DNA of 42,689 nucleotides from Hyphomicrobiales bacterium (GCA_002746425.1 NVXB01000001.1:61604-104292), one strand, 5' to 3'. Shown: positions 5,823 to 33,466, counted from the first letter of the stretch. The notes: a model not told the origin generated them from the sequence alone. Numbers and translations are program-made.

Positions 5823-8800
5823 ATGGACTTTTATACATTTTTTCAAAGATATAAATCTGATTTATTAATTTCTGGATATGAGAATGGGAAAAAGGTCAAT
5901 AAAGTTGTACCCCTAAAACCATATTTGTTTGCACCATCCAATAAGGGTGGCATATTTTCTTCTATGGAAGGAGAAAAAGTTAAAAAAATTGACTTTACTA
6001 ACACATGGGAAGCCTCAAAATTCATTAAAGAATATGAGGATATTGAAAATTTTAACATTTATGGCTCTACATATTATGATTATGTACATATAAATGATGC
6101 TTTTCCTATTATAAAAAATGATAATACTAAATTACGTATCGGCAATTATGATATTGAAACAGATTCTGAGGGTGGTTTTGCTGACCTAGAAACTGCTAAT
6201 AAAGAAATCACATCAATTTCATTAGGAGTTATGCATAAAAGAGATATTTATCTCCTGGGTGTAAAGGATTATGATCCAGAAAAATCCGAAATTCTTAAAA
6301 AAGAAATTCCTCATAAAAAAGTCAAATACATTAAATGTGAAAATGAAAAAGAACTTTTAGAGAAATTTATTGAAATTTGGGTGAAACTTAAATTTGATTG
6401 TATTTCTGGATGGTTTATTAATGGGTATGATAATCTATATACCATCAGGCGCATTAGACGCATCCTGGGTGATTCTTATGCTAATAAATTATCACCCTAT
6501 GGCATGATTAAAGAACATAGCTACGAAAAATATGGTAAAACTAAAGAACAATACGAAATTGTAGGAATTCCTACGATCGATTATATTGAGGCATATGCTA
6601 AATTTTCTTTCAAAAATGTTGAATCCTACAAATTAGATTACATTTCTCATCTAGAACTTGATAAGAAAAAATTAGATTATTCTAAATATAAGACATTAGC
6701 GAGATTGTATAAAGAAAATCCTGCGCTTTTCTATGACTATAATATTATTGATATTGTACGTGTCGAAGAATTAGAACATAAATTGAAATTTATTGATCTA
6801 ATGTTTTCTCTTGCATACTTCACTAAAACAAATGTTTTAGATGGTTTTGCCACAGTTAAGCCCTGTGACGTGGTTATTCATAATACTCTTATGAAGAAAA
6901 ACATTGTAGTACCACATAATAAAAAATCAGAACAAAGCTATAGACAAATCGCGGGCGGATATGTAAAACACCCTAAACCAGGGTTTTACAAATATTTAAT
7001 GAGTTTTGATCTCACAAGCCTATATCCATTTTTAATCATGTGTTTCAACATTTCACCCGACGTTTATATCGGTAAAATGGATCAATATGATAATTTGGGT
7101 ACTGCAGATCAAATTATCCATGACAATATATTCGATCATTTGAGAGAAAAATTAGTAAAAGAAAACGTGTGCATAACACCAAAAGGTACTATATTTTCAA
7201 GAGAAAAGCAAGGCGTTTTTGCTGAAATTATGGAAGAGGGTTTCAATCTCAGAAAATCACAAAAAGATGAAATGCTTAAGTATAAGAAACTCAAGGAAAG
7301 TGCTCAGGGCTCTGATAAAGATAAATGGGCAGCACTTGCCACTGAGTATGGTAACAGACAATTAGCCACCAAAATTTTCTTAAATGCATTTTATGGCGGG
7401 CTTGCAAATCCATATTCCAGGTGGTTTAATTATGACATCGCCGAATCTATTACGATGTCAGGGCAATTGGTGACAAAATATATTGAAAATGAGATGAATA
7501 CCTATTTCAATAAAATTCTTAAAACTAAAGATATAGACTATATCATCACGTCGGATACAGACAGTGTCGCTGGAGATTCATTAATATATGTAAACGATAA
7601 GAAAATAAAAATAGAAGATTATTATAATTCTTTAGAAAATAATTTTATTTTAAATGATACATTTAATGAGAATTATGTTAAAGAAGTTAGTGGCGACACT
7701 ACGAAATGTTATATTGAAGGTATAAAAAACAAAAAAATAAATTATATCATGAAACATAAAGTTTCTAAAAAAATGTATAGAATTAAATGCAACGGCAATT
7801 TTGTAGATGTTACAGAAGATCATTCTGTTATCGTAAAAAATAAAAAAACTAAAAAAATAAGTAGCATAAAACCTAAAAATCTTAATCCTAACCTACATTC
7901 TATTATAAATATCAAAACTAAAAAAATAGACGAATTAATAACAGATGATTTTGAAGTAGAATATTTAGGAATAATTGAAAATTATGTTTATGATATAGAA
8001 GTTGAAGAAGCTCATAATTTTTTTGCTAATGATATTTTAGTTCATAATTCCTGCTATATTAATGCTACTACTTTAATTGAAAAAGTATTTCCAGATGATT
8101 CTGGTTCGCAGGAAGAAATTACCAATTTTCTTGAAAATTTTGCTAAAGAAGTTGAAAGCAAAGCTATTGATGTAGCATTAGCAAAATTATACAAAGCAAC
8201 TAATATATATAAACCAAACCTTCATATGAAACTTGAAGCTATTGGACAAGGTGTTTGGCGAGCTACCAAAAATTATATTATGTCAGTGTGGAGCATGGAA
8301 GGTGTTAGATATAAAATTCCTGAAATTAAAATGCAGGGAATTGAGGCTGTAAAATCATCTACTCCTGAAATATGTAGAAATTATATCAAGGATTCACTAA
8401 AATTTATTGTGTCCCAGGACAGAAAAGGTCTAGTAGAACATATAAATAAATGTGAAGCAGAATTTTACGATATGCCATTTCATAAAGTAGCACTACCAAG
8501 AGGTGTCACTGAAATTGATAAATGGGTAGATGGTGATGGTAATTATGCTAAAGGAATACCATATCATGTTAGAGCTGCGTTAAATTATAACAAATTACTC
8601 AAAAAGAAAAACATGCAAAAAGAACATTTATTTATTGGACCTGGAGATAAGATGAGATTATCATATCTCACTATGCCAAATCCAACCAGACAGAATATTT
8701 TTGCGTGCCCTGATGAGCTTCCAGAAGAATTTGGTTTAGAGGAATACGTGGATTATCCTAAACAGTTCGAAAAAAGTTTTATGAAACCTATTACGAGCCT

Positions 8801-8861
8801 AGCTAATGCTGCTGGAATTAGTATGGATAACAAAGTAGAAATGGATCAATTTGAGGAATAA
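5823..8861 (+). CDS. gp43: family-B DNA polymerase (T4 gp43-like), intein-containing precursor
   Basis: AAGGAG RBS upstream. It has the Exo I motif 'YDIETD', 'SLYP' (motif A region), 'KIFLNAFYG' (motif B) and a 'DTDS' motif C interrupted by an insertion of about 162 aa. Confidence 0.9.
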   Translation: MDFYTFFQRYKSDLLISGYENGKKVNKVVPLKPYLFAPSNKGGIFSSMEGEKVKKIDFTNTWEASKFIKEYEDIENFNIYGSTYYDYVHINDAFPIIKNDNTKLRIGNYDIETDSEGGFADLETANKEITSISLGVMHKRDIYLLGVKDYDPEKSEILKKEIPHKKVKYIKCENEKELLEKFIEIWVKLKFDCISGWFINGYDNLYTIRRIRRILGDSYANKLSPYGMIKEHSYEKYGKTKEQYEIVGIPTIDYIEAYAKFSFKNVESYKLDYISHLELDKKKLDYSKYKTLARLYKENPALFYDYNIIDIVRVEELEHKLKFIDLMFSLAYFTKTNVLDGFATVKPCDVVIHNTLMKKNIVVPHNKKSEQSYRQIAGGYVKHPKPGFYKYLMSFDLTSLYPFLIMCFNISPDVYIGKMDQYDNLGTADQIIHDNIFDHLREKLVKENVCITPKGTIFSREKQGVFAEIMEEGFNLRKSQKDEMLKYKKLKESAQGSDKDKWAALATEYGNRQLATKIFLNAFYGGLANPYSRWFNYDIAESITMSGQLVTKYIENEMNTYFNKILKTKDIDYIITSDTDSVAGDSLIYVNDKKIKIEDYYNSLENNFILNDTFNENYVKEVSGDTTKCYIEGIKNKKINYIMKHKVSKKMYRIKCNGNFVDVTEDHSVIVKNKKTKKISSIKPKNLNPNLHSIINIKTKKIDELITDDFEVEYLGIIENYVYDIEVEEAHNFFANDILVHNSCYINATTLIEKVFPDDSGSQEEITNFLENFAKEVESKAIDVALAKLYKATNIYKPNLHMKLEAIGQGVWRATKNYIMSVWSMEGVRYKIPEIKMQGIEAVKSSTPEICRNYIKDSLKFIVSQDRKGLVEHINKCEAEFYDMPFHKVALPRGVTEIDKWVDGDGNYAKGIPYHVRAALNYNKLLKKKNMQKEHLFIGPGDKMRLSYLTMPNPTRQNIFACPDELPEEFGLEEYVDYPKQFEKSFMKPITSLANAAGISMDNKVEMDQFEE
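7563..8048 (+). mobile_element. mini-intein (162 aa) in polymerase motif C
   Basis: The sequence reads ..SDTD|SVAGDSLIYV...VTEDHSVIV...VYDIEVEEAHNFFANDILVHN|SCYINA.. It has blocks A (Ser1), B (TxxH), F and G (HN followed by Ser+1). Excision restores SDTDSCY, compared with T4 GDTDSVY. Confidence 0.8.
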
Positions 8862-9088: not shown

Positions 9089-10145
9089 CGAATTATTAAA
9101 AGCAACAAGTTTAGACCATGCAGGTATTTTAAGCGAGTCAGAAATTTATAATACCAGAGAATTTTATCCAACCGCAATTCCAATGATGAATGTGGCGCTA
9201 TCAGCAGATCCAATGGGCGGTGTCTCGTCGGGACTTACTGCATGGTGCGGCCCTTCGAGACATTTTAAATCTCTCTTTTGCTTAATTTCAGCGAAAGCAT
9301 ATTTAGATGCCCATGAAGATGGAATTTTAATTTTCTTTGATTCTGAATTTGGCACACCGCCTTCATATTTTGAAGCTGCGGGTATTGATCCTAAACGAGT
9401 TCTACATGTTCCTATTACAACATATGAAGATCTTAAATTCGATATTGCTAAAAAATTAGATATGATTAAACGAGGAGACAAGGTTTTTATTATCATCGAT
9501 TCTTTGGGTAATTTAGCCTCTAAGAAAGAAGCTGCCGATGCTTTAAAAGAAAATTCTGCCGCAGATATGACACGCGCGAAGGAAAATAAATCATTATTTC
9601 GTATTGTTACACCACATTTGCGCTTGAAAAATATTTCTATGCACGTTGTTCAACATACCTACGATACTATGGAAATGTATTCCAGAAAAGTTGTTTCTGG
9701 TGGACAGGGCACTCTCTTATCAGCTGATAATGTATTCATTCTAGGTCGTCAACAAGATAAAGATGGAACAGAATTAAATGGTTATAACTTTATCATCAAC
9801 GTGGAAAAATCCAGGTATGTTAAAGAAAAATCTAAAATACCTATTACAGTCGGTTTTGCAGGTGGCATTAAAAGATGGTCTGGACTTTTGGATTTAGCTG
9901 TAGATGCAGGAATGGTAGCGAAAATTTCGACACAATCTTATAATAAAATTGATCTTGAGACAGGTGAACTTATAGAAGATGTGAAATATAAAAGAAAAGA
10001 AATTGAATATGATTCAAAACTCTGGCTAGAAATGCTAGCAGAACCTAAATTTGTTGATTTTATTAAGAACAAATATGCTGTAGCCCATGGCAAGCTTCTC
10101 GAAGATGACGAAGAATTTCCAGAAATAGATGTACAGGATGAATAA
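9075..10145 (+). CDS. uvsX: UvsX recombinase (RecA-like)
   Basis: Collinear with T4 UvsX: 'IPMMNVALS', 'GPSRHFKS' (Walker A-like), 'FDSEFG', 'IDSLGNLASKKE', 'DMTRAKENKSLFRIVTP' and 'NVEKSRYVKEKSK'. Confidence 0.9.
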   Translation: MSLINELLKATSLDHAGILSESEIYNTREFYPTAIPMMNVALSADPMGGVSSGLTAWCGPSRHFKSLFCLISAKAYLDAHEDGILIFFDSEFGTPPSYFEAAGIDPKRVLHVPITTYEDLKFDIAKKLDMIKRGDKVFIIIDSLGNLASKKEAADALKENSAADMTRAKENKSLFRIVTPHLRLKNISMHVVQHTYDTMEMYSRKVVSGGQGTLLSADNVFILGRQQDKDGTELNGYNFIINVEKSRYVKEKSKIPITVGFAGGIKRWSGLLDLAVDAGMVAKISTQSYNKIDLETGELIEDVKYKRKEIEYDSKLWLEMLAEPKFVDFIKNKYAVAHGKLLEDDEEFPEIDVQDE

Positions 10146-10177
10146 ATCAGTATATAAATAAATTTTTAGGAGTATAA

Positions 10178-11512
10178 GTGCTAGAAAACAAGATTTTATC
10201 ACAATTATTAACCGATGATATATATTTAAGAAAAGTAATTATTCATTTAGATACTGATTACTTTGAAAATGCAAACGAGCAAATAGTCTGTAAATTAATT
10301 ACAGACTATTTTCAAAAATATAATAAAGCTCCAACTAAAAGTATTCTCGAAACAGAAATTGAAAGTAGAGAATTACCTGAAAATATTTATGACAGTTCCA
10401 TTTTATTGGTTAAAAACCTTAAAGATGAGGTACATGATAATGAATGGCTTATAGATAAAACAGAAGAATTTTGTAAAGAACGAGCTTTAAATAATGCGCT
10501 TTTTAAATCAGTAGAGTTATCTGAAAGCGATGAAAAAAACAAAATACCTGAAATTCTATCCAAGGCATTGGGTATTTCATTTGATAATGATCTTGGCCAT
10601 GATTATATTAAAGATGCTGAAAAGCGATTTAAATTCTATAACACTGAGCACAATAAAATACCCTTCGATATTGATTTATTGAATAAAATTACTAAAAACG
10701 GTGTTACTAGAAAAACATTCAACTGTTTAATGGCTCCTACTGGTAAAGGTAAATCGTTAGCCCTTTGTCATATGGCAGCAGCTTATCGTTCCAGCGGCTA
10801 TAATGTATTGTATATTAGTCATGAAATGAGTGAGGAATGGATTTCTAGACGAATTGACGCTAATTATTTCGACATTGATATCAATGATGTTGAGGACATG
10901 GAATATGATAAATTCATGGCTCAGATTAAGATACAGGATAGAAAAAGTGCTGGTGTACTGAAAGTAAAAGAATATCCTACTGGTACTGCTCATGTTGGAC
11001 ATATAAGACATTTAATATCTGAATATAAAATGAAAGAGAATTTCGTTCCAGATGTTATCATTATTGATTATATTAACATCATGTGTAGCTATAAAATGAA
11101 AAATAAAGGCGATTCGTATGGTTATATTAAATCAATTGCTGAAGAAGTAAGAGGATTATTTGTTGAGCTAGATGTAGTTGGATGGAGTGCTACACAAGTA
11201 AATAGGGAAGGTGTGAAAGCATCTGATTTTGATATGGGTGAAACATCTGAATCGATGGGTTTGGTTCATACTCTGGATTTATTTTTAGGTATGATGGCAA
11301 CCGAAGAATTAGAAGCTATGGGTCTGGTGAAATTTAAGCAATTAAAAAATCGTTACGGGGCTCTGGACTATTATTCATCCTTCGTTGTTGGTATTGATAA
11401 GCCTAAAATGAGATTATTTGATGCTGACGATCAAGGTTCTATTACCAAAGAGCCTAACGATTCTGGTCATAAGCAAAACAGGAAAGATAAATTGAATTCC
11501 TTAATGTCATAA
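10178..11512 (+). CDS. gp41: replicative DNA helicase (T4 gp41 / DnaB-like)
   Basis: GTG start 5 nt after an AGGAG RBS. The N-terminus aligns with T4 gp41 (ILSQLL..D..Y..KV). It has the Walker A motif 'APTGKGKS' and DnaB-like C-terminal motifs. Confidence 0.85.
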   Translation: MLENKILSQLLTDDIYLRKVIIHLDTDYFENANEQIVCKLITDYFQKYNKAPTKSILETEIESRELPENIYDSSILLVKNLKDEVHDNEWLIDKTEEFCKERALNNALFKSVELSESDEKNKIPEILSKALGISFDNDLGHDYIKDAEKRFKFYNTEHNKIPFDIDLLNKITKNGVTRKTFNCLMAPTGKGKSLALCHMAAAYRSSGYNVLYISHEMSEEWISRRIDANYFDIDINDVEDMEYDKFMAQIKIQDRKSAGVLKVKEYPTGTAHVGHIRHLISEYKMKENFVPDVIIIDYINIMCSYKMKNKGDSYGYIKSIAEEVRGLFVELDVVGWSATQVNREGVKASDFDMGETSESMGLVHTLDLFLGMMATEELEAMGLVKFKQLKNRYGALDYYSSFVVGIDKPKMRLFDADDQGSITKEPNDSGHKQNRKDKLNSLMS

Positions 11513-12867: not shown

Positions 12868-13368
12868 ATGAGAGATATATGGGTAATATCAGATACACAT
12901 TTTAATCATACAAACATATTAAATTTTACTGATGATTTTGGTGATAAAGTGCGTAAATTTGATAATGTAAATCAAATGAATGACTGTATGATCACTAATT
13001 GGAATGAAGTAGTTAAAGAAACTGATATCATCTATCATTTAGGCGATGTGTATTTCGGCAATTCTCACGAAACAGATGAAATTTTAAAGAAATTAAATGG
13101 TAAAAAGAGACTTATATTAGGTAATCATGATAATGGTAAAGATCAAATATTGTATAAACATTTTGCTAAAATAACTCTCTGGCGATTATTTAAAGAACAT
13201 AACATGGTTTTAACACATATACCTTTACATGAAAGTAATATGCAAAAAGTTGAATATAACGTACATGGACACATACACCAAAACATTTCGCCAACGCCAA
13301 ATCATATTAATGTATGTGTTGAACAAATTAATTATAAACCAATTCATATAGAAAGTATAATCAAATGA
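12868..13368 (+). CDS. metallophosphoesterase (second, distinct)
   Basis: Motifs present: 'SDTHFNH', 'LGDV', 'GNHD', 'THIPLH' and 'HGHIH'. Confidence 0.75.
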   Translation: MRDIWVISDTHFNHTNILNFTDDFGDKVRKFDNVNQMNDCMITNWNEVVKETDIIYHLGDVYFGNSHETDEILKKLNGKKRLILGNHDNGKDQILYKHFAKITLWRLFKEHNMVLTHIPLHESNMQKVEYNVHGHIHQNISPTPNHINVCVEQINYKPIHIESIIK

Positions 13369-17054: not shown

Positions 17055-17696
17055 TTATAGCGTTTTGAGAAATTTCTCAAAGTTTTCTAAGATTTCTTCT
17101 TCAGTTAAATTGGCTTTATCTAAATCTTCTTTAATTTCTTCTAAAACCATTCTTTTTAGTTCACTACCTTCATAAATCCATTCAACGTTTTCCATAATGC
17201 CGTTAACCCAAGCACCCTGAGCAGATGGTTGAGCGACAATATCTATAGTGTTAAGAACAAAATCTTCCTGAACAACCATCACACCGCCAGATGGTTTTAC
17301 AGAACCTAAACCTCTGGTAGAAACTCCTAATGATGCACCACCTTCAATTAATTTTCTAGCGATATTACCCATCGGGGTATCAAGAATTTTAGCTTTACCG
17401 TAAAAATCAGAGCCATCTTTTTTCATTTCTACGATCATATGAGACACTTTGTCTAAATTAATTGTAGGACCAGACGGATGATTCAATTCACCTAATGAGC
17501 GATTTTTAAGAATAAAATTTTCATTATATGAATTCATTTGCTTTTCTAAAATTGCAGATGGATAAATTCTACCATTTTTATTAGGTTTATCACCCTGCAT
17601 GAACAAACCTTCGATATAAAGATTGGATTGCTTTCCCTCTTCGAGAGTTTCAGTAATACATTTAACATCAAAATTTTCTTCAGTAATAAGTTTCAT
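17055..17696 (-). CDS. gp21: prohead core protease (T4 gp21-like)
   Basis: 213 aa. It has 'GELNHP' and 'GVSTRGLGS' motifs similar to T4 gp21, in the conserved position. Confidence 0.85.
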   Translation of the reverse strand: MKLITEENFDVKCITETLEEGKQSNLYIEGLFMQGDKPNKNGRIYPSAILEKQMNSYNENFILKNRSLGELNHPSGPTINLDKVSHMIVEMKKDGSDFYGKAKILDTPMGNIARKLIEGGASLGVSTRGLGSVKPSGGVMVVQEDFVLNTIDIVAQPSAQGAWVNGIMENVEWIYEGSELKRMVLEEIKEDLDKANLTEEEILENFEKFLKTL

Positions 17697-18427
17697 TATT
17701 CTGATTCCTTATGCTCATTTGCTAATGGTTCAGGAATTTTTACTAATAGATTATCTCTAATATTTTCAAGATCTCTATGAATGATTTTCCAATCACAATA
17801 TGTATTATTTTCCTTAATCATTTCAGATAAATCACTAATTTCGTCAATTAAATTCATAGCGCCATGGTAATATAATTCTTTCATATCGCCATATGATTCA
17901 GTAAGCTTAATACTTTTTTTGATGGTATTATAAACATTATTAAGATCATCATCTGAAGGTTGTTTTACGTGTTTGTTTACATATTTATCAATGTACTCCA
18001 GAGCATGAAAATCTATGAATGTGCGTTTAGCTTTAGCATCGCCATATTTTTCTTTTTTAAATTTTGCCTGAAGTTCTTTAGTGAGTTTAGACATCTGAAC
18101 TTTATTGAGGATTAAACCTTCTGTTATATTAGCTCTATTTTTTTTACCAGTAAATGTTCTAAAATCGCCATAAGTTTTTTTCTTAGCGTCTTCTTCATTT
18201 TTTTGAGCGTCTTTTTGCTTCTTGGTCCAATCACCGTTAATACCTTCACCTAATTCATTTTTTCTATCTGCGTCGCGACTTTTATCTTTAGGAGTGTTTT
18301 TTATATCGGTTTTGTTTTCAGGTATATCATGAGTTTTCATACCATTAAGATGAGTTTTTTCAAACTCTTTGTCACCCTTAGACATGAATTTAGCAACTTC
18401 TGTATAAAATTGTTTATAATTTTTCAT
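17696..18427 (-). CDS. hypothetical Lys/Asp-rich protein in the gp68 (prohead core) position
   Basis: The assignment is positional only, between the gp67-like and gp21-like genes. It is much longer than T4 gp68. Confidence 0.35.
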   Translation of the reverse strand: MKNYKQFYTEVAKFMSKGDKEFEKTHLNGMKTHDIPENKTDIKNTPKDKSRDADRKNELGEGINGDWTKKQKDAQKNEEDAKKKTYGDFRTFTGKKNRANITEGLILNKVQMSKLTKELQAKFKKEKYGDAKAKRTFIDFHALEYIDKYVNKHVKQPSDDDLNNVYNTIKKSIKLTESYGDMKELYYHGAMNLIDEISDLSEMIKENNTYCDWKIIHRDLENIRDNLLVKIPEPLANEHKESE

Positions 18428-25875: not shown

Positions 25876-25950
25876 GCGGGTATAGCTCAGAGGCAGAGCA
25901 CCTGGTTTCCAACCAGGGTGTCGGGATTTCGAAATTCCCTACCCGCTCCA
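25876..25950 (+). tRNA. tRNA-Gly (anticodon UCC)
   Basis: Hand-folded cloverleaf. Acceptor stem GCGGGTA/TACCCGC, D stem GCTC/GAGC, anticodon stem CCTGG/CCAGG with loop TTTCCAA, and T loop TTCGAAA. Discriminator U and an encoded CCA. There is one U-U mismatch at the base of the T stem. Confidence 0.85.
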
Positions 25951-26273: not shown

Positions 26274-26350
26274 GCCCGAGTAGCTCAATTGGCTAGAGCC
26301 ATCAGCTCATAACTGATTCGGTGGGGGTTCGAGTCCCTCCTCGGGCACCA
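26274..26350 (+). tRNA. tRNA with CAU anticodon (elongator Met, or Ile2 read via a modified C34)
   Basis: Acceptor stem GCCCGAG/CTCGGGC, D stem GCTC/GAGC, anticodon stem ATCAG/CTGAT with loop CTCATAA, and T arm GGGGG-TTCGAGT-CCCTC. Discriminator A and an encoded CCA. It is not initiator-like, because it has a G1-C72 pair and lacks the GGG/CCC anticodon stem. Confidence 0.85.
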
Positions 26351-26972: not shown

Positions 26973-28562
26973 TTACCAATTATAATCAAGAGTTATTTCC
27001 TCAAGGTGTTGCTCTTCATCATGACCATCTATAATTATTCCAAACGGAAGAAGACTAGAATCCATGTCTTCTTCCGTTTGTTCTTTGAGATGCTGTAGAA
27101 TATTTTCGTCATTAATTTGATCAATAAAACCAGAGTTAGCAAGCCAAGCAAACAAAACAAGACACATAGTAGTGTCATCATGTTTACCTGATTCAGCTTC
27201 GTATGATTTACCTTTTGCAGAAAATGTTTTAAGTTCATCAATAGTAATTTTATCTATTATTTCAATTTTATTTTGTTCGATTAATAATTTTATCATTGCA
27301 CAACCAACAGCTTTTACACCTGTAGTGGTTCTAATACCTCTATCAGCTTTTCCGCCATAAGATACTTGTTTACCGTTTCTGCCCTTGGTTTCTGTACATA
27401 TAATATTACCTTCATATTCCCATATAATATCAGCTACTTGTTGTCCTAAATCATTTATTTCGACAAGAATTTGAGCTTCATTATAATATGTACCCATTCT
27501 GTAGCATATATCAGCAAAATCAGAGGGAGTGATCATATTATTTCTATATGTGCAAACTTCTTTGTATGGCACAGTGGAAATATCAATAATCTGAAATGCA
27601 GAATAATCTAATCCCTTACCTCTAGAAACATCTGCTACTAGAACATAATTATGATCACTCTGAGACTCATAATACTGACACATATGTGTGTCCTGTTGAT
27701 AAGGAGTTCTATACATTAATAACTTCAATGCCGCGCCGGAAATGAGTGTCCCGGACGAACCTATAAACTCTACTTCTTGTTCCTGAGCAAATTTTTGTTC
27801 ATCAAAGTTTAATTCTGCTAATGTATTTTGTTTCCATTTTTCATCTCTGGCTTTCACTTTCCACCAAGGAACCTCAATATACTCAAATCCATTCAAGCCC
27901 TTTTTAGCATTTTCCACATAGTAATAAAAATGATTTAAACCGTTTGGTGTAGATGTAAGAATCAACCTAGGATTTGGGCCAGCCGAAAGAGTTGGTAAAA
28001 CAGCAGAGGCGAAATCATCCCAATTATCAACAAATGCTGCTTCATCAATATAAACCATATCAAGAGATTTACCACGGACTGAATTTCCTATAGTAGCATC
28101 TGCATAAATCATAGAGCCATTTTCAAATTCCATTGATTCTTTATTGAATGATTTTATTCCGCCCTTAAGCCATCCAGGAAGATATTCATATGCTAATTGT
28201 ATACGAGATAAAACTTCCTTAGCAGTAGCTTTTCTATTGGCTAATATACCTACTTTATAATGTTCGTTAAAAATAGCATCATGGAGAATAATAACAGTTG
28301 CCACAGCCGTTTTACCGACTTGCCTGGCTGTAGCCATAATAAGCTTACCAGTTTTTTTGTATTTTCTAATAGCTTTTTTCTGGTATTTATAAAGTTTGAA
28401 TGGTATTAAGCCACGGCCAGGTGCAACAATCCTGAAATATGTTTCTGCAAAATATATAGGATCTTCCATACATTTCTGTAACTCTTTCATCTGAAAATCA
28501 GAAAGATTTTTTAAAGTACCTGCCTTTGGCAAATTTTCGTTGCCGTTATAAAAATTAGACAT
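26973..28562 (-). CDS. gp17: terminase large subunit (T4 gp17-like)
   Basis: It has the ATPase region 'ATARQVGKTAV' and 'VYIDEAAF' (Walker B-like), and a C-terminal nuclease region with 'GKHDD'. It follows the small subunit gene. Confidence 0.9.
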   Translation of the reverse strand: MSNFYNGNENLPKAGTLKNLSDFQMKELQKCMEDPIYFAETYFRIVAPGRGLIPFKLYKYQKKAIRKYKKTGKLIMATARQVGKTAVATVIILHDAIFNEHYKVGILANRKATAKEVLSRIQLAYEYLPGWLKGGIKSFNKESMEFENGSMIYADATIGNSVRGKSLDMVYIDEAAFVDNWDDFASAVLPTLSAGPNPRLILTSTPNGLNHFYYYVENAKKGLNGFEYIEVPWWKVKARDEKWKQNTLAELNFDEQKFAQEQEVEFIGSSGTLISGAALKLLMYRTPYQQDTHMCQYYESQSDHNYVLVADVSRGKGLDYSAFQIIDISTVPYKEVCTYRNNMITPSDFADICYRMGTYYNEAQILVEINDLGQQVADIIWEYEGNIICTETKGRNGKQVSYGGKADRGIRTTTGVKAVGCAMIKLLIEQNKIEIIDKITIDELKTFSAKGKSYEAESGKHDDTTMCLVLFAWLANSGFIDQINDENILQHLKEQTEEDMDSSLLPFGIIIDGHDEEQHLEEITLDYNW

Positions 28563-28965
28563 TTTTATCTTTCAATTTTTTAATTGCATCAGATGTTGTG
28601 CCAACAAATAAATTATTAGTAGTGTTATGAGTATCACCGGCTGGTTTATCATCATGAACTATTTCTTTTCTAGCCCTTGCGTTATCCACTAAATTTTTAT
28701 TAGCATCTAACATGACTTTAATCAAATTAGATAATTCTCTATATGATTTTGGATCTTGTGATTGTGTGCTTAAAGCTATTAATTCGGCTAAAGCATCATC
28801 ACCCTGTGTGATAAGATTTCGAATATTAGTTCTAGCTTCATCTAAATCATCTTCAAGAGTTTCCCCAGATGTTTTATCAAAGGGTATTAATTCTATTGTT
28901 TTCATAGTTTTAGTTTTAGGTATAGGTGATAAATCTAATCTTTCGTAAATTGGGTCATTTTCCAT
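28555..28965 (-). CDS. gp16: terminase small subunit (T4 gp16 position)
   Basis: 136-aa helical protein that overlaps the gp17 start. The position is conserved. Confidence 0.65.
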   Translation of the reverse strand: MENDPIYERLDLSPIPKTKTMKTIELIPFDKTSGETLEDDLDEARTNIRNLITQGDDALAELIALSTQSQDPKSYRELSNLIKVMLDANKNLVDNARARKEIVHDDKPAGDTHNTTNNLFVGTTSDAIKKLKDKNV

Positions 28966-29932
28966 TTGCTAAATCCATCACTTTCTGAGTTGGATTTTCA
29001 ATATATTTAATAACATCACCATTTCGCTGAATAGCGGCTAATTGTACTTTCTCAGATGGATTTTTGATACGTAATATGCCATATGCATTTTGTGCAACAG
29101 CTGCTATTTGCACTTTCTCAGATGGGTTTTTGATATATTTAATAACACCACCATTTCGCTGAATAGCGGCTAATTGTACTTTCTCAGATGGATTTTTGAT
29201 ACGTAATATGCCATATGCATTTTGTGCAACAGTATTTATTTGAAATTTTTCACCCATTTTATCAAAGAACCAATTAACAGTATTCATTTCTGCATTTGTT
29301 TTTAAACCCTGATCCTTATCATTCATGTAAGAATCAGTTTCCATATGGAATTGATACTTTTTACCACCCTTTATGATGATATAAAGAGTGCCTTGGTCAT
29401 CGTATCTTTGAAATTCATTCTTTCCTTTAGTAGCTGCTGTGCACCATTTAGTACCTTTTCCCCAGAAGCAGGAAGCTGCTTCTGTTTTTGGTATTAAGAT
29501 TACATCTTTACCCGATTGATAAACGAATGTGGTTTCTTTTTTGATTTTGTCGGAAAGAACAGCCTTCTCTTCTTTGCCAGATAAAGTATCTGAGAATGCT
29601 TCTACCATATTCTCCAATTCAGAGAGTGATTTTATTTGATTAATATCTTTCTTAGGCATTTTGGTTTTATGTTTATGAAAGATTTCTAATGCATTTCCTG
29701 TACGACTAAAATCCTCGAAGAGATTAATTCCCTTATTGAGATAAGTTCTTAGAATCCATAATGCGTACTGTTTGTTTGGTGTAGGATCAGAATCTAACGC
29801 AGTTTCTATCACTTTACGAGCATCAGTTGCAGTTCTATCACTCTTAATTCTAGCTTCCAACTTAGAACCCATTTGCTTTAGGGTTTTCTCTATGTCGACT
29901 CGTTCGATGAGATAGTGCTTAAAATTAATCAT
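28955..29932 (-). CDS. accessory protein: conserved N-terminal domain ('GTKWCTAA' motif) plus four DUF4116-like 22-aa repeats
   Basis: The ATG immediately follows the gp15 stop (TAAATG). The C-terminal repeats are 'AQNAYGILRIKNPSEKVQLAAIQRNGGVIKYIKNPSEKVQ'. It is a paralog of 31251..32090. Confidence 0.7.
   Translation of the reverse strand: MINFKHYLIERVDIEKTLKQMGSKLEARIKSDRTATDARKVIETALDSDPTPNKQYALWILRTYLNKGINLFEDFSRTGNALEIFHKHKTKMPKKDINQIKSLSELENMVEAFSDTLSGKEEKAVLSDKIKKETTFVYQSGKDVILIPKTEAASCFWGKGTKWCTAATKGKNEFQRYDDQGTLYIIIKGGKKYQFHMETDSYMNDKDQGLKTNAEMNTVNWFFDKMGEKFQINTVAQNAYGILRIKNPSEKVQLAAIQRNGGVIKYIKNPSEKVQIAAVAQNAYGILRIKNPSEKVQLAAIQRNGDVIKYIENPTQKVMDLANGK
28982..29245 (-). repeat. in-frame tandem repeat, 2 x 132 nt (4 x 66 nt sub-units)
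   Basis: 29001-29100 and 29133-29232 are nearly identical at the DNA level, differing at only one position by eye. Confidence 0.85.
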
Positions 29933-30721
29933 TTAATTATTTGCCTCCGGTGTTTCATCTACTTGAAAAATGAATCCATAATTGTCATCAGCATTTATTG
30001 ATGTATATGCAATGGTATCATTAATATCTGTAGTAGGTTCGCTATTGGCTGTTAAGCCTGGTTGTCCTGTCATTTCCTGATCTAAAATAGTCATTTCTTC
30101 GTCTGAATAAATATTAGTTTTAACAAATTTAATAACAGCACTATCTGGTATCGGGCCAAAGAAATAATATCTTAGCGTAAAATCCAGTTGCCATATAATA
30201 GCTCTTCTGGTCATAAAATCACCATCATAAGTATCATTCATAACCACGTTGTTTAATTCAAGTGGTGTGCTGAATATTTCGTCATTATTATCCAGCAGTT
30301 GAGCCGATATCGCTAAATTGGGATTAAAGAGTGGTAATATTTGCTCAACAATTTTAATTGAATCCTCTGCGTTTTTTGAACCAATATTTAACTGGAAATC
30401 TATATTATATGGAACAGGCACAAAATAATTATTGTCAATTCTATTAGTTTTCTGTATTTTTCTAATGGAATCTCTTTGAATATTTGTGATCTCAAATGAC
30501 ATACGAGGATAAATTATGTTAGAAGCTCTTCCACCGCTAGCATCTGCTTCTATACGTGCAATAAATTTCTGTATAGGCGCATATTGAAGTGGTACATCAA
30601 CTGTCTCATGCTCAGTTCCACTAGATACCTCGCGCATTATTTGTATGTCATTAAACCTAGAGCCAAATATGGAAATAGCCTTTCTTAGCGACGCGTGGTA
30701 ATAATTTGATGATATAGACAA
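29933..30721 (-). CDS. gp15: tail sheath stabiliser / tail completion protein (T4 gp15-like)
   Basis: TTG start. 'YHASLRKAISIFGSRFNDIQIMR' (T4 'YNSSFRRYATLMGDLFSNIQIKR') and 'IVEQILPLFNPNL' (T4 'IVEQILPYFQPHF'). Confidence 0.85.
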   Translation of the reverse strand: MSISSNYYHASLRKAISIFGSRFNDIQIMREVSSGTEHETVDVPLQYAPIQKFIARIEADASGGRASNIIYPRMSFEITNIQRDSIRKIQKTNRIDNNYFVPVPYNIDFQLNIGSKNAEDSIKIVEQILPLFNPNLAISAQLLDNNDEIFSTPLELNNVVMNDTYDGDFMTRRAIIWQLDFTLRYYFFGPIPDSAVIKFVKTNIYSDEEMTILDQEMTGQPGLTANSEPTTDINDTIAYTSINADDNYGFIFQVDETPEANN

Positions 30722-30741
30722 ATTAGACTCTCTTTTTATAT

Positions 30742-30749
30742 TATTTATT
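30742..30749 (-). promoter_or_regulatory. possible late promoter variant AATAAATA upstream of gp15
   Basis: The - strand reads AATAAATA 21 nt upstream of the TTG start. This is one mismatch from TATAAATA. Confidence 0.3.
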
Positions 30750-30750
30750 G

Positions 30751-30779
30751 TTTACATAAATTATAAAATGAATTATATT
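30751..30779 (+). promoter_or_regulatory. sigma70-like promoter TTTACA-N17-TATATT
   Basis: It has aTTGTTTACA (30747-30756), a 17-nt spacer and TATATT (30774-30779), upstream of the ATG at 30808. Confidence 0.5.
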
Positions 30780-30807
30780 ATAATTTATTGAAATGAGGAG
30801 AATAATT

Positions 30808-31065
30808 ATGAATTCACATATAAACTACATTACAGGAAATTTTGATTGTGTAGATGATATTCCTGATAACCAACAAATTGAATTAAGATTAGATGCTGTT
30901 TTATCATTACTTTATCCAGATTATTTTTGTTGTGGGGATAGTGTTACTGATTTTCTTATAGAAAATTGTATTTACATCCTAGGGGCTTGTAATGATTTGC
31001 GGCACTCTAAATGTGCAGAAATTATTAAAAAATATGAAGAATTATATGATGAAATATCTCTGTGA
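30808..31065 (+). CDS. hypothetical Cys-rich protein
   Basis: ATG at 30808 follows a GAGGAG RBS. The ORF-track start at 30793 contains that RBS. Confidence 0.5.
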   Translation: MNSHINYITGNFDCVDDIPDNQQIELRLDAVLSLLYPDYFCCGDSVTDFLIENCIYILGACNDLRHSKCAEIIKKYEELYDEISL

Positions 31066-31254
31066 CAATAAAAGGCATTTAATTTGTGAACCATATTCTA
31101 TAGAAAATTTACATAAAATGGCGAAAGAATTAAATATACCAGATGTTGGTTTCATAAGAATCATTATGACATTCCTAAACGTAGAATAGAGGAAATAACT
31201 AATAAATGTGAGGTTATTTCTTCTAAGAAGATTATTAGAATTATTAATTATTAA
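31049..31254 (+). pseudogene. DUF4031-like gene interrupted by a 1-nt frameshift near 31139-31141
   Basis: Frame A gives 'MKYLCDNKRHLICEPYSIENLHKMAKELNIP', continuing to a stop at 31189. The frame 1 nt back from 31141 gives 'RCWFHKNHYDIPKRRIEEITNKCEVISSKKIIRIINY*'. Joined together they match the DUF4031 pattern (HL..d...eLh.mA...gi...wfh...HYDi..). Confidence 0.45.
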
Positions 31255-32090
31255 TTATTTGCTAAATCCATTACTTTTTGAGTTGGATTTTTGATATATC
31301 CAATGGCATAACCATTATGTTGAACTGCTGCTAATTGTACTTTCTCTGATGGATTTTTAATATACTGAATATTATAACCATTATGTTGAACTGCTGCTAA
31401 TTGTGCTTTCTCACCCATTTTATCAAAGAACCAATTCATAACTTCATTTGTTTTTAAATCCTGATCTTGATCCTTTTCATCCATATAAGAATCAGTTTCC
31501 ATGTGGAATTGATATTTCTTACCACCCTTTATGATGATATAAAGAGGGCCTTGTTTATTATAGCCCTGAAATTCATTCTTTCCTTTAGTAGCTGCTGTGC
31601 ACCATTTAGTACCTTTGCCCCAGAAGCAGGAAGCTGCTTCTGTTTTTGGTATAAGGATTATGTCTTTACCAGAACGATAAACGAATGTGGTTTCTTTTTT
31701 GATTTTGTTACTTAAAATTGATTTTTCTTCTTTACCAGATAGTTTTCCTTCAAATGCTTCTACCATATCCTCCAATTCAGATAATGATTTTATTTGATTA
31801 ATATCTTTTTTAGACATTTTGGTTTTATGTTTATGGAAAACCTTAAGCGCTTCAGATGTACGACTAAAATCCTCGAAGAGATTAATGCCTTTATTGAGAT
31901 AAGTTCTTAGGATCCAAAGTGTGTACTGTTTGTTTGGTGTAGGATCAGAACTTATAGCTCCTTCTACCACTTTACGAGTATCAGATGCAGTTCTATCACT
32001 CTTAATGCGTGCTTCCAACTTAGAACCCATTTGTTTTAGGGTTTTTTCGATATCAACTCGTTCGATAAGGTAGTGTTTAAAATTAATCAT
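31251..32090 (-). CDS. accessory protein, paralog of 28955..29932 (same N-terminal domain plus two DUF4116-like repeats)
   Basis: The ATG immediately follows the gp14 stop (TAAATG). The first 35 or so residues are almost identical to the paralog, and 'CFWGKGTKWCTAATKGKNEFQ' is conserved. Confidence 0.7.
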   Translation of the reverse strand: MINFKHYLIERVDIEKTLKQMGSKLEARIKSDRTASDTRKVVEGAISSDPTPNKQYTLWILRTYLNKGINLFEDFSRTSEALKVFHKHKTKMSKKDINQIKSLSELEDMVEAFEGKLSGKEEKSILSNKIKKETTFVYRSGKDIILIPKTEAASCFWGKGTKWCTAATKGKNEFQGYNKQGPLYIIIKGGKKYQFHMETDSYMDEKDQDQDLKTNEVMNWFFDKMGEKAQLAAVQHNGYNIQYIKNPSEKVQLAAVQHNGYAIGYIKNPTQKVMDLANN

Positions 32091-32720
32091 TTAATATCCG
32101 TCTGTAAATGGGTTTGTTTCAGAAAAATCCATTATAGTATTAGCCTCACCCTCAAAATCAGAGCTTTGGTCATATGGATCGTTTGCAATATCATCAAACG
32201 CAGCATATTTTGTATCTAATTCAGTGATACCAGTATTAAAGGTATCACCGGTGCTTTCATACAATTCAAGAGTTATGTCGTAAGTTTGTAATGTACCTAA
32301 TTGATAAAATGGTAAAGCAGTTTCTATATAGCTTACTTCGTATAGCGCACTTATCATTGGCACCCATATTAAATCACCTTCAAGTGGTCTTGTATAGGAA
32401 ACTGTAGGAGTAACAAATTCTTCAAAAGATCTTTTGCTCACAGTGAGAGTTATTTGGTCTTTAATTTGTAGACCAAATTTCTCCATGAATAATCCCTGTC
32501 CCTCGAATGATGAAGCAGATTTAATATAAAATTCACAATCAATCGCTGAATTGAATTCAGAATATTCATATTCATTAAGAACTTCATCTTTATTGATACC
32601 TGTTCTAGGTATATATTGCATATCATGGGCATAAATCTTAATAGATTCAACAATTAAGTCTTCAATTAAAGTCTGCTCGTTATTAGCTGAAAAATGGTTA
32701 AAATAAGGATTTACGGCCAT
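32091..32720 (-). CDS. gp14: neck protein (T4 gp14-like)
   Basis: 'NPYFNHFSANNEQTLIEDLIVESIKIYAHDMQYIPR' (T4 '[36 protein letters not shown]'), 'FEGQGLFMEKFGLQIKDQITL' and 'EGDLIWVPM..ALYEV'. Confidence 0.85.
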   Translation of the reverse strand: MAVNPYFNHFSANNEQTLIEDLIVESIKIYAHDMQYIPRTGINKDEVLNEYEYSEFNSAIDCEFYIKSASSFEGQGLFMEKFGLQIKDQITLTVSKRSFEEFVTPTVSYTRPLEGDLIWVPMISALYEVSYIETALPFYQLGTLQTYDITLELYESTGDTFNTGITELDTKYAAFDDIANDPYDQSSDFEGEANTIMDFSETNPFTDGY

Positions 32721-33466
32721 TACATTATCAGATCCAGAGGTGGAAGCATATAATCAGATTTATATTCATCTTCAATTTGCTGAAGTTCAGCTACGCCATC
32801 ATCATATATCTGTCTACCACTTAATGTCATACCGCCCGGAAGTTGAACTCCTTCGTATTTAGAAAGATTAGAACCAAATACTTTTTTAACCAAAGCAACA
32901 ACATGTTTCTGCAATATTCTATCATTCCAGACATCTGTTTGTACTTCAGGATCAATGGCTGTATAACAATTAAATACTAGCCAATTGCCTACTGCTAATT
33001 TACCTGGGCTGCAATCTAAATGAACTTTATTAAAATGTCTATTATATCTAATAGGAAATTCGCCAACCAAAGTTTCTTGTATTTGTGCTATTTGCATTCT
33101 AGTAAGTTGATAATCAATAAGTGAAAATGAACTCATATCCTGGACCATAGAAAGCTGAAACTGGTAATCGAAGGAAAACATATTTGAAGAAAAAGCGCCG
33201 CCTCTTATAGGAAATATATTGCTAATTCCTACTACCGTATCCGGAACATCTACAGACATTGTAGATATTGTATTAGCATTAATTTCGTGCTTTAAAAATG
33301 TATTTACTGTGCCATCATAATGATAATCAACGAAATATGATAATGCAATTTCTACTGCATCTTCTACTTGCGAATCAGAAACATTTATCTCGATCACTGG
33401 TTTTCCCAGTTGTCTTAAAACAAATTCTTTAAATTCAGCTCTAGTGGCTGGTTTATATGTGCTCAT
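32720..33466 (-). CDS. gp13: neck protein (T4 gp13-like)
   Basis: 'ATRAEFKEFVLRQLGKPVIEINVSDSQVEDAVEIALSYFVDYHYDG' (T4 '[45 protein letters not shown]'). Confidence 0.85.
   Translation of the reverse strand: MSTYKPATRAEFKEFVLRQLGKPVIEINVSDSQVEDAVEIALSYFVDYHYDGTVNTFLKHEINANTISTMSVDVPDTVVGISNIFPIRGGAFSSNMFSFDYQFQLSMVQDMSSFSLIDYQLTRMQIAQIQETLVGEFPIRYNRHFNKVHLDCSPGKLAVGNWLVFNCYTAIDPEVQTDVWNDRILQKHVVALVKKVFGSNLSKYEGVQLPGGMTLSGRQIYDDGVAELQQIEDEYKSDYMLPPLDLIM

Follow-up and report, generated by a model that had tools for sequence, protein, structure and literature searches.

The 42,689-nucleotide (nt) stretch of DNA analysed here in full (the window; GCA_002746425.1 NVXB01000001.1:61604-104292, filed under a Hyphomicrobiales bacterium) belongs to a distant T4-superfamily myovirus and carries two paralogous genes, designated X1 and X2, among its late genes for neck and terminase proteins. 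Each product consists of three modules, i.e., a 10-residue leader, a constant domain of ~220 amino acids (aa), and a variable DUF4116-type array, and the leader resembles the capsid-targeting sequence (CTS) through which phage T4 loads proteins into its prohead. From the sequence evidence, we give an even chance to the interpretation that X1 and X2 are head-packaged cargo, trimmed by the prohead protease and ejected with the DNA. The minus-strand gene order is gp13, gp14, X2, gp15, X1, TerS, and TerL; since genes 13, 14, 15, 16, and 17 are contiguous on the T4 map, X1 and X2 are insertions. A prediction made earlier from the window alone (hereafter the original prediction), which had described two late-strand paralogs following gp14 and gp15, was confirmed with the same gene coordinates, and the two proteins are 81% identical over 276 aa (E=2e-169). 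The features that carry the argument are as follows (HMM, hidden Markov model).

28955..29932, minus strand: X1, 325-aa paralog directly after gp15 (family HMM, 2.3e-81)
29903..29932, minus strand: X1 leader (codons 1-10), MINFKHYLIE, of T4 CTS type (F4, Y7, L8, E10), with a putative prohead-protease site after E10
29237..29902, minus strand: X1 conserved domain (residues 11-232), with a helical subdomain (14-132) and, after it, an alpha/beta subdomain that bears G158, T161, W163-C164-T165, and Y177
28979..29242, minus strand: X1 C-terminal array, four 22-aa (66-nt) DUF4116-type helical repeats, including a 132-nt tandem duplication at 92-95% identity
31251..32090, minus strand: X2, 279-aa paralog directly after gp14 (family HMM, 3.9e-83)
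32061..32090, minus strand: X2 leader (codons 1-10), MINFKHYLIE, the same peptide as in X1 with 4 synonymous differences
31284..31412, minus strand: X2 C-terminal array, two 22-aa DUF4116-type repeats
17055..17696, minus strand: T4-type prohead protease, gp21 homolog (PF03420 Peptidase_S77, 9.2e-35; phrog_207, 6.2e-72)
17696..18427, minus strand: basic protein of 243 aa, which occupies the gp68/internal-protein slot (portal-side genes on one side, protease on the other), starting MKNYKQFYTE with V as the next residue
18437..18652, minus strand: gp67-like acidic protein of 71 aa, starting MSIKNLIDEILE

The CTS found on T4's internal proteins reads MKTYQEFIAE (PMC8442874); its residues 4 and 7 chiefly determine targeting, its residues 8 and 10 determine processing by gp21, and gp21 itself bears LIE-9 (PMC9026906). 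Every T4 internal head protein enters the scaffolding core by its CTS, which gp21 then removes (PMC5694885), and these internal proteins are diverse defence proteins that have the CTS alone in common (PMC3012670). X1 and X2 match the T4 CTS at all four mapped positions (F4/Y7 as compared to Y4/F7, as well as L8 and E10), and the leader is followed by R in both. Residues 1-8 show a predicted local distance difference test score (pLDDT) below 50 in both AlphaFold2 (AF2) models, though they are conserved; a conserved yet low-confidence segment is typical of a linear recognition motif. The original prediction had overlooked the leader.

Both genes show the marks of long-term selection. Overall, X1 and X2 differ with a synonymous divergence (dS) of 0.53 and a nonsynonymous divergence (dN) of 0.11 (omega 0.21); because of these values, both copies are judged to be functional and under purifying selection, with no recent gene conversion and with a duplication that is not recent. 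The original prediction had also reported that each ATG abuts the preceding stop codon within the same junction, and this holds for both genes (TAA followed directly by ATGATTAATTTTAA(A/G)CAC; the junction sequence common to X1 and X2 is TAAATGATTAATTTTAA(A/G)CAC). Since codons 1-35 combine a dS of 0.77 with a dN of 0.012, and 34 of the 35 residues are identical, the shared junction is best attributed to selection on the N-terminal peptide, as opposed to gene conversion or a mobile-element end. No direct or inverted repeats flank X1 or X2, and homology stops at the ends of the open reading frames (ORFs); together with the dS of 0.77, this rules out a mobile element or gene conversion as the source of the identical junctions, and protein-level conservation of the first 35 codons takes the place of any such reading.

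The head module of the window provides the machinery on which a CTS would depend, as it includes, in addition to the Peptidase_S77 protease, a gp22-like scaffold (phrog_237, 8.2e-57), a major capsid protein, and a portal. A strict version of the leader motif was matched by 3 of 400 ATG-initiated ORF candidates in the window, namely X1, X2, and the 243-aa basic protein, and had zero matches in 20 kb of flanking sequence. The phiM12 counterpart of the 243-aa protein, SmphiM12_070, which was found by synteny, starts MKSFKQLVE with T as the next residue, and the two proteins have the leader and a KDKSRDAD motif in common; tblastn found no homolog of the 243-aa protein among GenBank phages. Located between portal and prohead protease, the 243-aa and 71-aa proteins probably belong to the prohead core or are internal proteins. 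Both X1 and X2 have a basic pI (9.4 and 9.3, respectively) and contain few [LI]xE sites per 100 aa (0.9-1.1); this low density is shared by the capsid protein (0.7), which persists through maturation, but not by the scaffold (6.2), the protease (6.1), or the gp67-like protein (~6).

Across the family to which X1 and X2 belong, the leader is retained in its key positions; among 302 copies of the N-terminal domain, L8 corresponds to L or I in 232 of 233 aligned residues and E10 to E in 235 of 236, with MRAxEFLxEY as the commonest form. The leader is also found on genes outside the family. In family-bearing loci, 52 of 1835 non-family ORFs start with M[RK]xx[EDQ][FLIYV][LIF]xE, as compared to 2 of 7381 internal-Met controls (odds ratio 108, p=2e-34), and 14 further non-family ORFs carry a T4-type leader (e.g., MLTFKQFIAEAR, MITFKQFITEE). 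When their first 12 residues were removed, the 66 leader-bearing non-family ORFs fell into 45 blastp clusters, including an Fe/Mn superoxide dismutase (SOD), a zeta-toxin/AAA_33 kinase, a Pol-beta nucleotidyltransferase, a GH19 hydrolase, a deoxynucleoside kinase, and several DUFs; in the SOD (contig L058, 8514..9044), the leader is a plain extension ahead of the canonical N-terminus. The type of leader co-varies within loci, with non-family leaders of the MRA type outnumbering the other type 31:1 where the family gene is of the MRA type, and standing at 0:2 where it is of the T4 type (p=0.005). A short N-terminal peptide that is found on unrelated proteins, tracks the genome, and ends in a P1-Glu site looks like what would be expected of a capsid-targeting sequence. 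Runs of consecutive, mutually unrelated genes that start MRAxEF[IL]xE were observed in six contigs (L050, L058, L075, L083, L084, and L013), with seven such genes in L050.

The analysis establishes the gene structure, the paralogy and purifying selection, the leader motif with its conservation in the family and its occurrence on unrelated proteins, and the presence of the protease. Packaging, cleavage, ejection, and any target in the host are what we infer for X1 and X2, and the proposed course is as follows. X2 would be co-transcribed and translationally coupled with gp13-gp14, and X1 with gp15-TerS-TerL. The leader would carry both proteins into the scaffolding core of the prohead, where the Peptidase_S77 protease of the phage would cleave after E10, and the basic mature proteins would remain in the head among the packaged DNA and be ejected, along with the genome, into the host. 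Once there, the constant domain may act or anchor, and the DUF4116 solenoid may serve as a variable target-binding arm. With regard to transcription, T4-type late promoters (TATAAATA) are located immediately upstream of the genes for capsid, scaffold, tail tube, and sheath (16127, 17045, 21157, and 25485, minus strand); the consensus occurs 17 times in the window in total, which is not above the shuffled expectation (11.9). The promoter scan of the window found no T4-type late promoter before X1 or X2, which are therefore presumably read from neighbouring late transcripts. The X1 stop overlaps the TerS start by 11 nt. The surrounding late genes are listed below.

32720..33466, minus strand: gp13 (phrog_211)
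32091..32720, minus strand: gp14 neck protein (PF11649, 6.5e-29), the stop of which is abutted by X2
29933..30721, minus strand: gp15 tail sheath stabiliser with a TTG start (PF16724, 5.9e-60; phrog_227), the stop of which is abutted by X1
28555..28965, minus strand: TerS, small terminase (phrog_445, 1.5e-20), starting within the last X1 codons
26973..28562, minus strand: TerL

T4 head-packed proteins include anti-restriction (IPI) and host-modifying (Alt) effectors. The internal proteins (IPs) and Alt of T4 resemble X1 and X2 in the 10-residue leader with aromatic or hydrophobic residues at positions 4 and 7 and (L/I)-x-E at 8-10 (PMC8442874, PMC9026906), in being basic and late-expressed with few internal cleavage motifs, and in coming from phages that encode both a Peptidase_S77 protease and a gp22-like scaffold; the T4 IPs and the phages with X1/X2-type genes also have in common that otherwise unrelated proteins bear the leader (PMC3012670, PMC5694885). 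By contrast, the mature parts of X1 and X2 show no sequence similarity to the T4 proteins (the homolog search returned no T4 match), and X1 and X2 are larger (31-36 kDa when mature), modular in that a constant domain is joined to a solenoid, and encoded in the neck/terminase operon. A further parallel is provided by gp53 and gp54 of phage SPN3US, head paralogs with identical N-termini and otherwise diverged sequences that are cleaved after Glu by a T4-related prohead protease (PMC5694885). These two and the inner-body/ejection paralogs of phiKZ have conserved N-termini, as do X1 and X2, with 34 of 35 residues identical despite the synonymous divergence there; unlike X1 and X2, they carry propeptides that are mostly >100 residues and a cleavage motif of A/S-x-E, and no sequence similarity was detected.

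Proteomic support comes from a distant homolog in Pseudomonas jumbo phage PA5oct. EST35_0205 (gp205) of this phage contains the N-terminal domain (34.9% identity; tblastn, 1e-21), starts MKLFEVFTLYE, is encoded directly after TerL, and is annotated as 'structural protein, ESI-MS/MS'; it differs in its length of 482 aa, its unrelated C-terminal region, its lack of a DUF4116 array, and its origin in a jumbo phage of a different family. Proteomics of phage MIJ3 covered major bands only. The original prediction had proposed virion-associated or injected effectors, and this part is favoured, genuinely if indirectly, by the CTS-type leader, the prohead protease, and the mass-spectrometric detection of the PA5oct homolog in virions.

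The leading alternative, which we consider rather unlikely, is that X1 and X2 are late cytoplasmic accessories that stay outside the virion (i.e., assembly or packaging helpers, or host-takeover factors) and that the N-terminal L-x-E-(Y) is the first structural element of their domain; leaders on neighbouring genes would then reflect something else that these genes have in common, e.g., binding to the same partner, or tagging for degradation or localisation. A number of observations weigh against packaging. Some internal domain copies in multi-domain proteins retain L-x-E, and P1' is usually a conserved Tyr across the family, followed by further conserved residues; because of these features, the L-x-E motif could belong to the domain as an integral element. 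Family members are found in diverse genomic contexts, some with metabolic neighbours, with only ~9 of 58 scanned same-strand upstream neighbours recognisably structural, and the copy in Caulobacter phage CcrBL9 is located among small hypothetical genes in a non-structural region. The PA5oct homolog, the sole proteomic support, is distant from X1 and X2 (~35% identity), and mass spectrometry of PA5oct virions also detected non-structural enzymes (PMC7318152). Finally, the resemblance of the leader to the T4 CTS was noticed post hoc. What counts against an unpackaged accessory is that the same leader occurs on at least 45 unrelated protein clusters, being a clear N-terminal extension in the SOD, that it agrees with the T4 CTS at each of the four positions mapped by function, that its sole other carrier in the window sits in the head-core cluster, and that the PA5oct homolog was found in virions.

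The genomic positions of family members in other phages bear on a second alternative, that X1 and X2 decorate the outside of the virion, with the constant domain bound to the neck, collar, or tail terminator and the DUF4116 solenoid displayed for adhesion. A family member occupies the slot directly after gp15 in three additional contig lineages (L002, L009/L011, and L032), and L002 has three paralogs, one of them located after a structural protein of 557 aa. The closest relative with context, L054, has its family gene after gp13; L054 also encodes gp15 as two adjacent homologous ORFs of 218 and 251 aa (9648..11056), an HNH endonuclease after TerS, and, after the family gene, a 338-aa protein starting MKPYLTLLEE. 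This placement beside neck and tail-completion genes (i.e., directly after gp14 and gp15 in the window, and after gp13 or gp15 elsewhere), the virion protein identified by mass spectrometry as a distant homolog, and a repeat number that varies as is typical of surface binders would all suit external decoration. We nevertheless regard it as improbable; family genes occur equally after TerL (in PA5oct and MIJ3), beside gp21-gp23, or far from any structural gene, arrays of as many as 6 tandem copies in one genome (L169) would be hard to place on a neck, the leader and its protease site point to the head interior, and fold searches found no structural similarity to known neck or whisker proteins. 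With regard to the head module, family genes are located a few kb downstream of a T4-like gp21-gp22-gp23 module in L013, L051, L065, and L071, and in L060 the family gene lies next to such a module but on the other strand. Of 94 cases examined, 82 have an upstream gene of the same orientation, and in 61 of the 94 it is also separated by a gap of <=20 nt. Because neighbours are heterogeneous, there is no obligate partner gene, just a lean toward late structural operons, and a conserved partner gene was ruled out on the same ground. The survey of related phages suggested in the original prediction thus found the slot after gp15 filled elsewhere, but no close relatives.

It is highly improbable that X1 and X2 are selfish mobile genes akin to free-standing homing endonucleases, which would explain ORFs placed precisely between conserved, essential late genes, slots that differ among phages (after gp13, gp14, gp15, TerL, or gp23), and common tandem and dispersed multi-copy arrays, since no nuclease or recombinase domain was found in them with Pfam, NCBIfam, PADLOC, a PDB profile search, or Foldseek, flanking repeats are absent and homology ends with the ORFs, the paralogs are old and under purifying selection (dS and omega as given above), and the slot after gp15 is conserved across divergent phages.

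We tentatively propose, as a possibility short of an even chance, that leader and family mark an undescribed general capsid-cargo system of uncultivated large phages, in which a portable tag with a Glu-specific site loads dozens of unrelated proteins for co-injection. The tag would take the form M[RK]AxEF[LI]xE or the T4-type form MxxFKx[FY][LI]xE, and the proposed cargo would include the SOD, the zeta-toxin-like kinase, the nucleotidyltransferase, and the GH19 hydrolase. CTS-directed cargo is already known in T4; what appears to be new is a cargo family of >10,000 clusters that has neither a Pfam model nor a match to any solved fold, the breadth of the leader among uncultivated large phages, and the MRAxEF[LI]xE variant. 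An incomplete search of the literature found no papers on this family, referred to here as the W-C domain family, or on the leader outside T4-type model phages.

Head-packed proteins are the first viral factors to reach the host, and their repertoire has been little explored beyond a few model phages. If the leader is a true CTS, ejected cargo could be predictable from sequence across thousands of environmental T4-like and jumbo phages, which would provide a searchable entry to new anti-defence or takeover effectors; a family of this size lacking a Pfam model or a match to a solved fold would represent a major cargo class, and the leader could be usable as a portable packaging tag for engineering non-T4 phages. 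If it is not, the family would still stand as a clearly bounded and very abundant domain, specific to viruses, that merits a family definition of its own.

The size of the family was assessed with a profile of 18 full-length homologs (N-terminal domain plus repeats), which matched 11,686 clusters (50% identity; E<=1e-3), of which 2,689 reached E<=1e-30. A strict DNA pattern search for sequences encoding GxGTKWCTAA identified at least 120 IMG/VR loci as compared to 4 in 596 Gb of prokaryotic genomes, all 4 on contigs of metagenome-assembled genomes, and a looser IMG/VR scan yielded 572 confirmed loci. By these searches the W-C domain family is very large and virus-restricted, and X1 and X2 are ordinary members of it and no peculiarity of this phage. 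Most carriers are large-phage contigs, commonly of 100-500 kb, in which dispersed and tandem multi-copy arrays are common; examples are L169 (IMGVR_UViG_3300033120_001080, 250 kb), in which six GxGTKWCTAA matches lie within 6.5 kb at a spacing of 1.1-1.5 kb, as in a tandem gene array, and L077, with four family genes in tandem. Some database sequences contain up to five domain copies per protein (P0019, 1844 aa), and such multi-copy proteins may be fused arrays or polyproteins. Among cultured phages, the N-terminal domain occurs only in PA5oct-like Pseudomonas jumbo phages, Caulobacter CcrBL9, and Salicola SCTP-2. On the reading of a general cargo system, the solenoid arms would be rapidly diversifying; in this sample, the W-C family is the commonest leader carrier.

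In 207 copies of the constant domain, W163 and C164 are invariant, G158 and Y177 are conserved in >=99%, and T161, T165, P148, D49, D96, and D207 in 94-96%. Its motifs read DPTxNKxYxxW, ED, DIN, and PxTxxASCxYGxGTxWCTAAxxxxNxFxxY...KYQF...D, and the acidic cluster and the Cys suggest a putative active or binding site. The original prediction had described a conserved N-terminal domain of about 230 aa that could be assigned to no described family, and this was borne out, with zero matches in Pfam, NCBIfam, and PADLOC, matches in PHROG to uncharacterised families only (phrog_28193, phrog_17056, and phrog_5925), and only spurious matches in a PDB profile search (designed PPR repeats on a 30-residue helix). 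The fold check that it had recommended produced a confident AF2 model of the domain and no PDB fold match; the model (76 sequences; pLDDT 88.2, as compared to 75.5 for the full-length model) shows the helical subdomain (14-132), after which come a beta-hairpin, three helices, another beta-hairpin with one more strand, and a helix. Foldseek searches of PDB with the two models gave best E values of 0.27 (full length) and 1.2 (N-terminal domain), neither of them meaningful, and a BFVD fold search returned only uncharacterised homologs and DUF4116 proteins, with PA5oct EST35_0205 as the top match (2.1e-12). The W-C domain family, which matches no solved fold, may have a new activity. A papain-like Cys-His-Asp triad (C164, H196, and D207) was ruled out, H196 being just 74% conserved and missing in many members, and the consensus likewise ruled out PTP-loop, P-loop, and GIY-YIG readings of the motifs.

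With regard to the C-terminal arrays, the original prediction of four versus two 22-aa repeats was upheld by 66-nt periods that amount to four full units in X1 and two in X2, in addition to a cap common to both. The tandem repeats of X1 comprise 3.4 copies of the 66-nt period and 1.9 copies of the 132-nt unit (95% matches), and those of X2 comprise 2.0 copies of the 66-nt period. Because a second assembly of the same phage is gapped within the array, the X1 repeat count is not fully secure. This assembly (L210; ENA ERZ23500043, scaffold_35, 150,845 bp) is 100% identical over 20 kb except for one scaffold gap of 100 N (13046..13145), which falls at window position 29045/29046. In the AF2 model, the repeats form helix pairs at X1 250-324 (pLDDT 88-94), and DUF4116 repeats have been predicted to form an alpha-solenoid (PMC8078820). 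The resemblance to DUF4116 that had been claimed for the repeats was supported through homologs but not by the two proteins themselves; X2 (19.7 bits, E=6.2e-4) and X1 (14.5 bits) remain below the gathering threshold of PF13475 (24.9), whereas full-length X homologs pass PF13475 with values up to 6.9e-49, and a match to phrog_17056 reached 1.8e-33. On the strength of these threshold-passing homologs, the repeats are assigned to a DUF4116-type solenoid. The DUF4116 proteins of bacteria, giant viruses, and protists are similarly built of tandem units of ~22-25 aa (AA[VI]Q.NG.AI.YIKNPSE.VQ); they differ from X1 and X2 in passing the PF13475 threshold, and in giant viruses the repeats are joined to other N-terminal domains, e.g., F-box. 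The DUF4116 label itself carries no information on the N-terminal domain or the leader. A hairpin of identical sequence, with a stem of 9 bp (CAGAAGCAG-GAAG-CTGCTTCTG) and a plus-strand T-run after it, also lies within both ORFs (29463..29484 and 31621..31642), where it coincides with the codons for TEAASCFW; it may be terminator-like for antisense transcripts, and it may be a coding coincidence.

The phage itself has a window G+C content of ~31% and a major capsid protein with <=63% identity to that of any GenBank phage, the nearest by this protein being Rhizobium RHph_I1_18, Stenotrophomonas DLP6, Methylophilales Melnitz, and Sinorhizobium phiM12. Searches of INPHARED, IMG/VR, and JGI metagenomes yielded no close relatives, the sole further contig being of the same phage. 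The original prediction of extra genes within the neck/terminase module holds for X1 and X2 but had overlooked two small genes of opposite strand between X2 and gp15 (30722..31254), so that X2 is not the sole insertion there. Both are preceded by sigma-70-like promoters and are as follows.

30808..31065, plus strand: 85-aa Cys-rich ORF (no Pfam or PHROG match)
31046..31254, plus strand: DUF4031 gene, split by a 1-nt frameshift near 31145..31150

The 85-aa ORF, which has two sigma-70-like promoter matches (30715..30779) and an inverted repeat of 19 nt (30751..30793) ahead of it, is a gene of early or middle type inside the late neck operon. With one T restored, the DUF4031 gene scores 36.6 bits against PF13223 (threshold 25.6); its 3' half shows 72-78% DNA identity to huge uncultured phages (LR756502, 642 kb) as well as to phages of Acinetobacter, Chryseobacterium, and Flavobacterium, and its stop and that of X2 overlap convergently. 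Elsewhere in the window, genes for tRNA-Gly(TCC) (25876..25950, plus strand) and tRNA-Met(CAT) (26274..26350, plus strand) are located between the sheath and terminase genes, and a family-B DNA polymerase of 1012 aa (5823..8861, plus strand) has a weak Intein_splicing (PF14890) match that suggests a possible intein or intein remnant.

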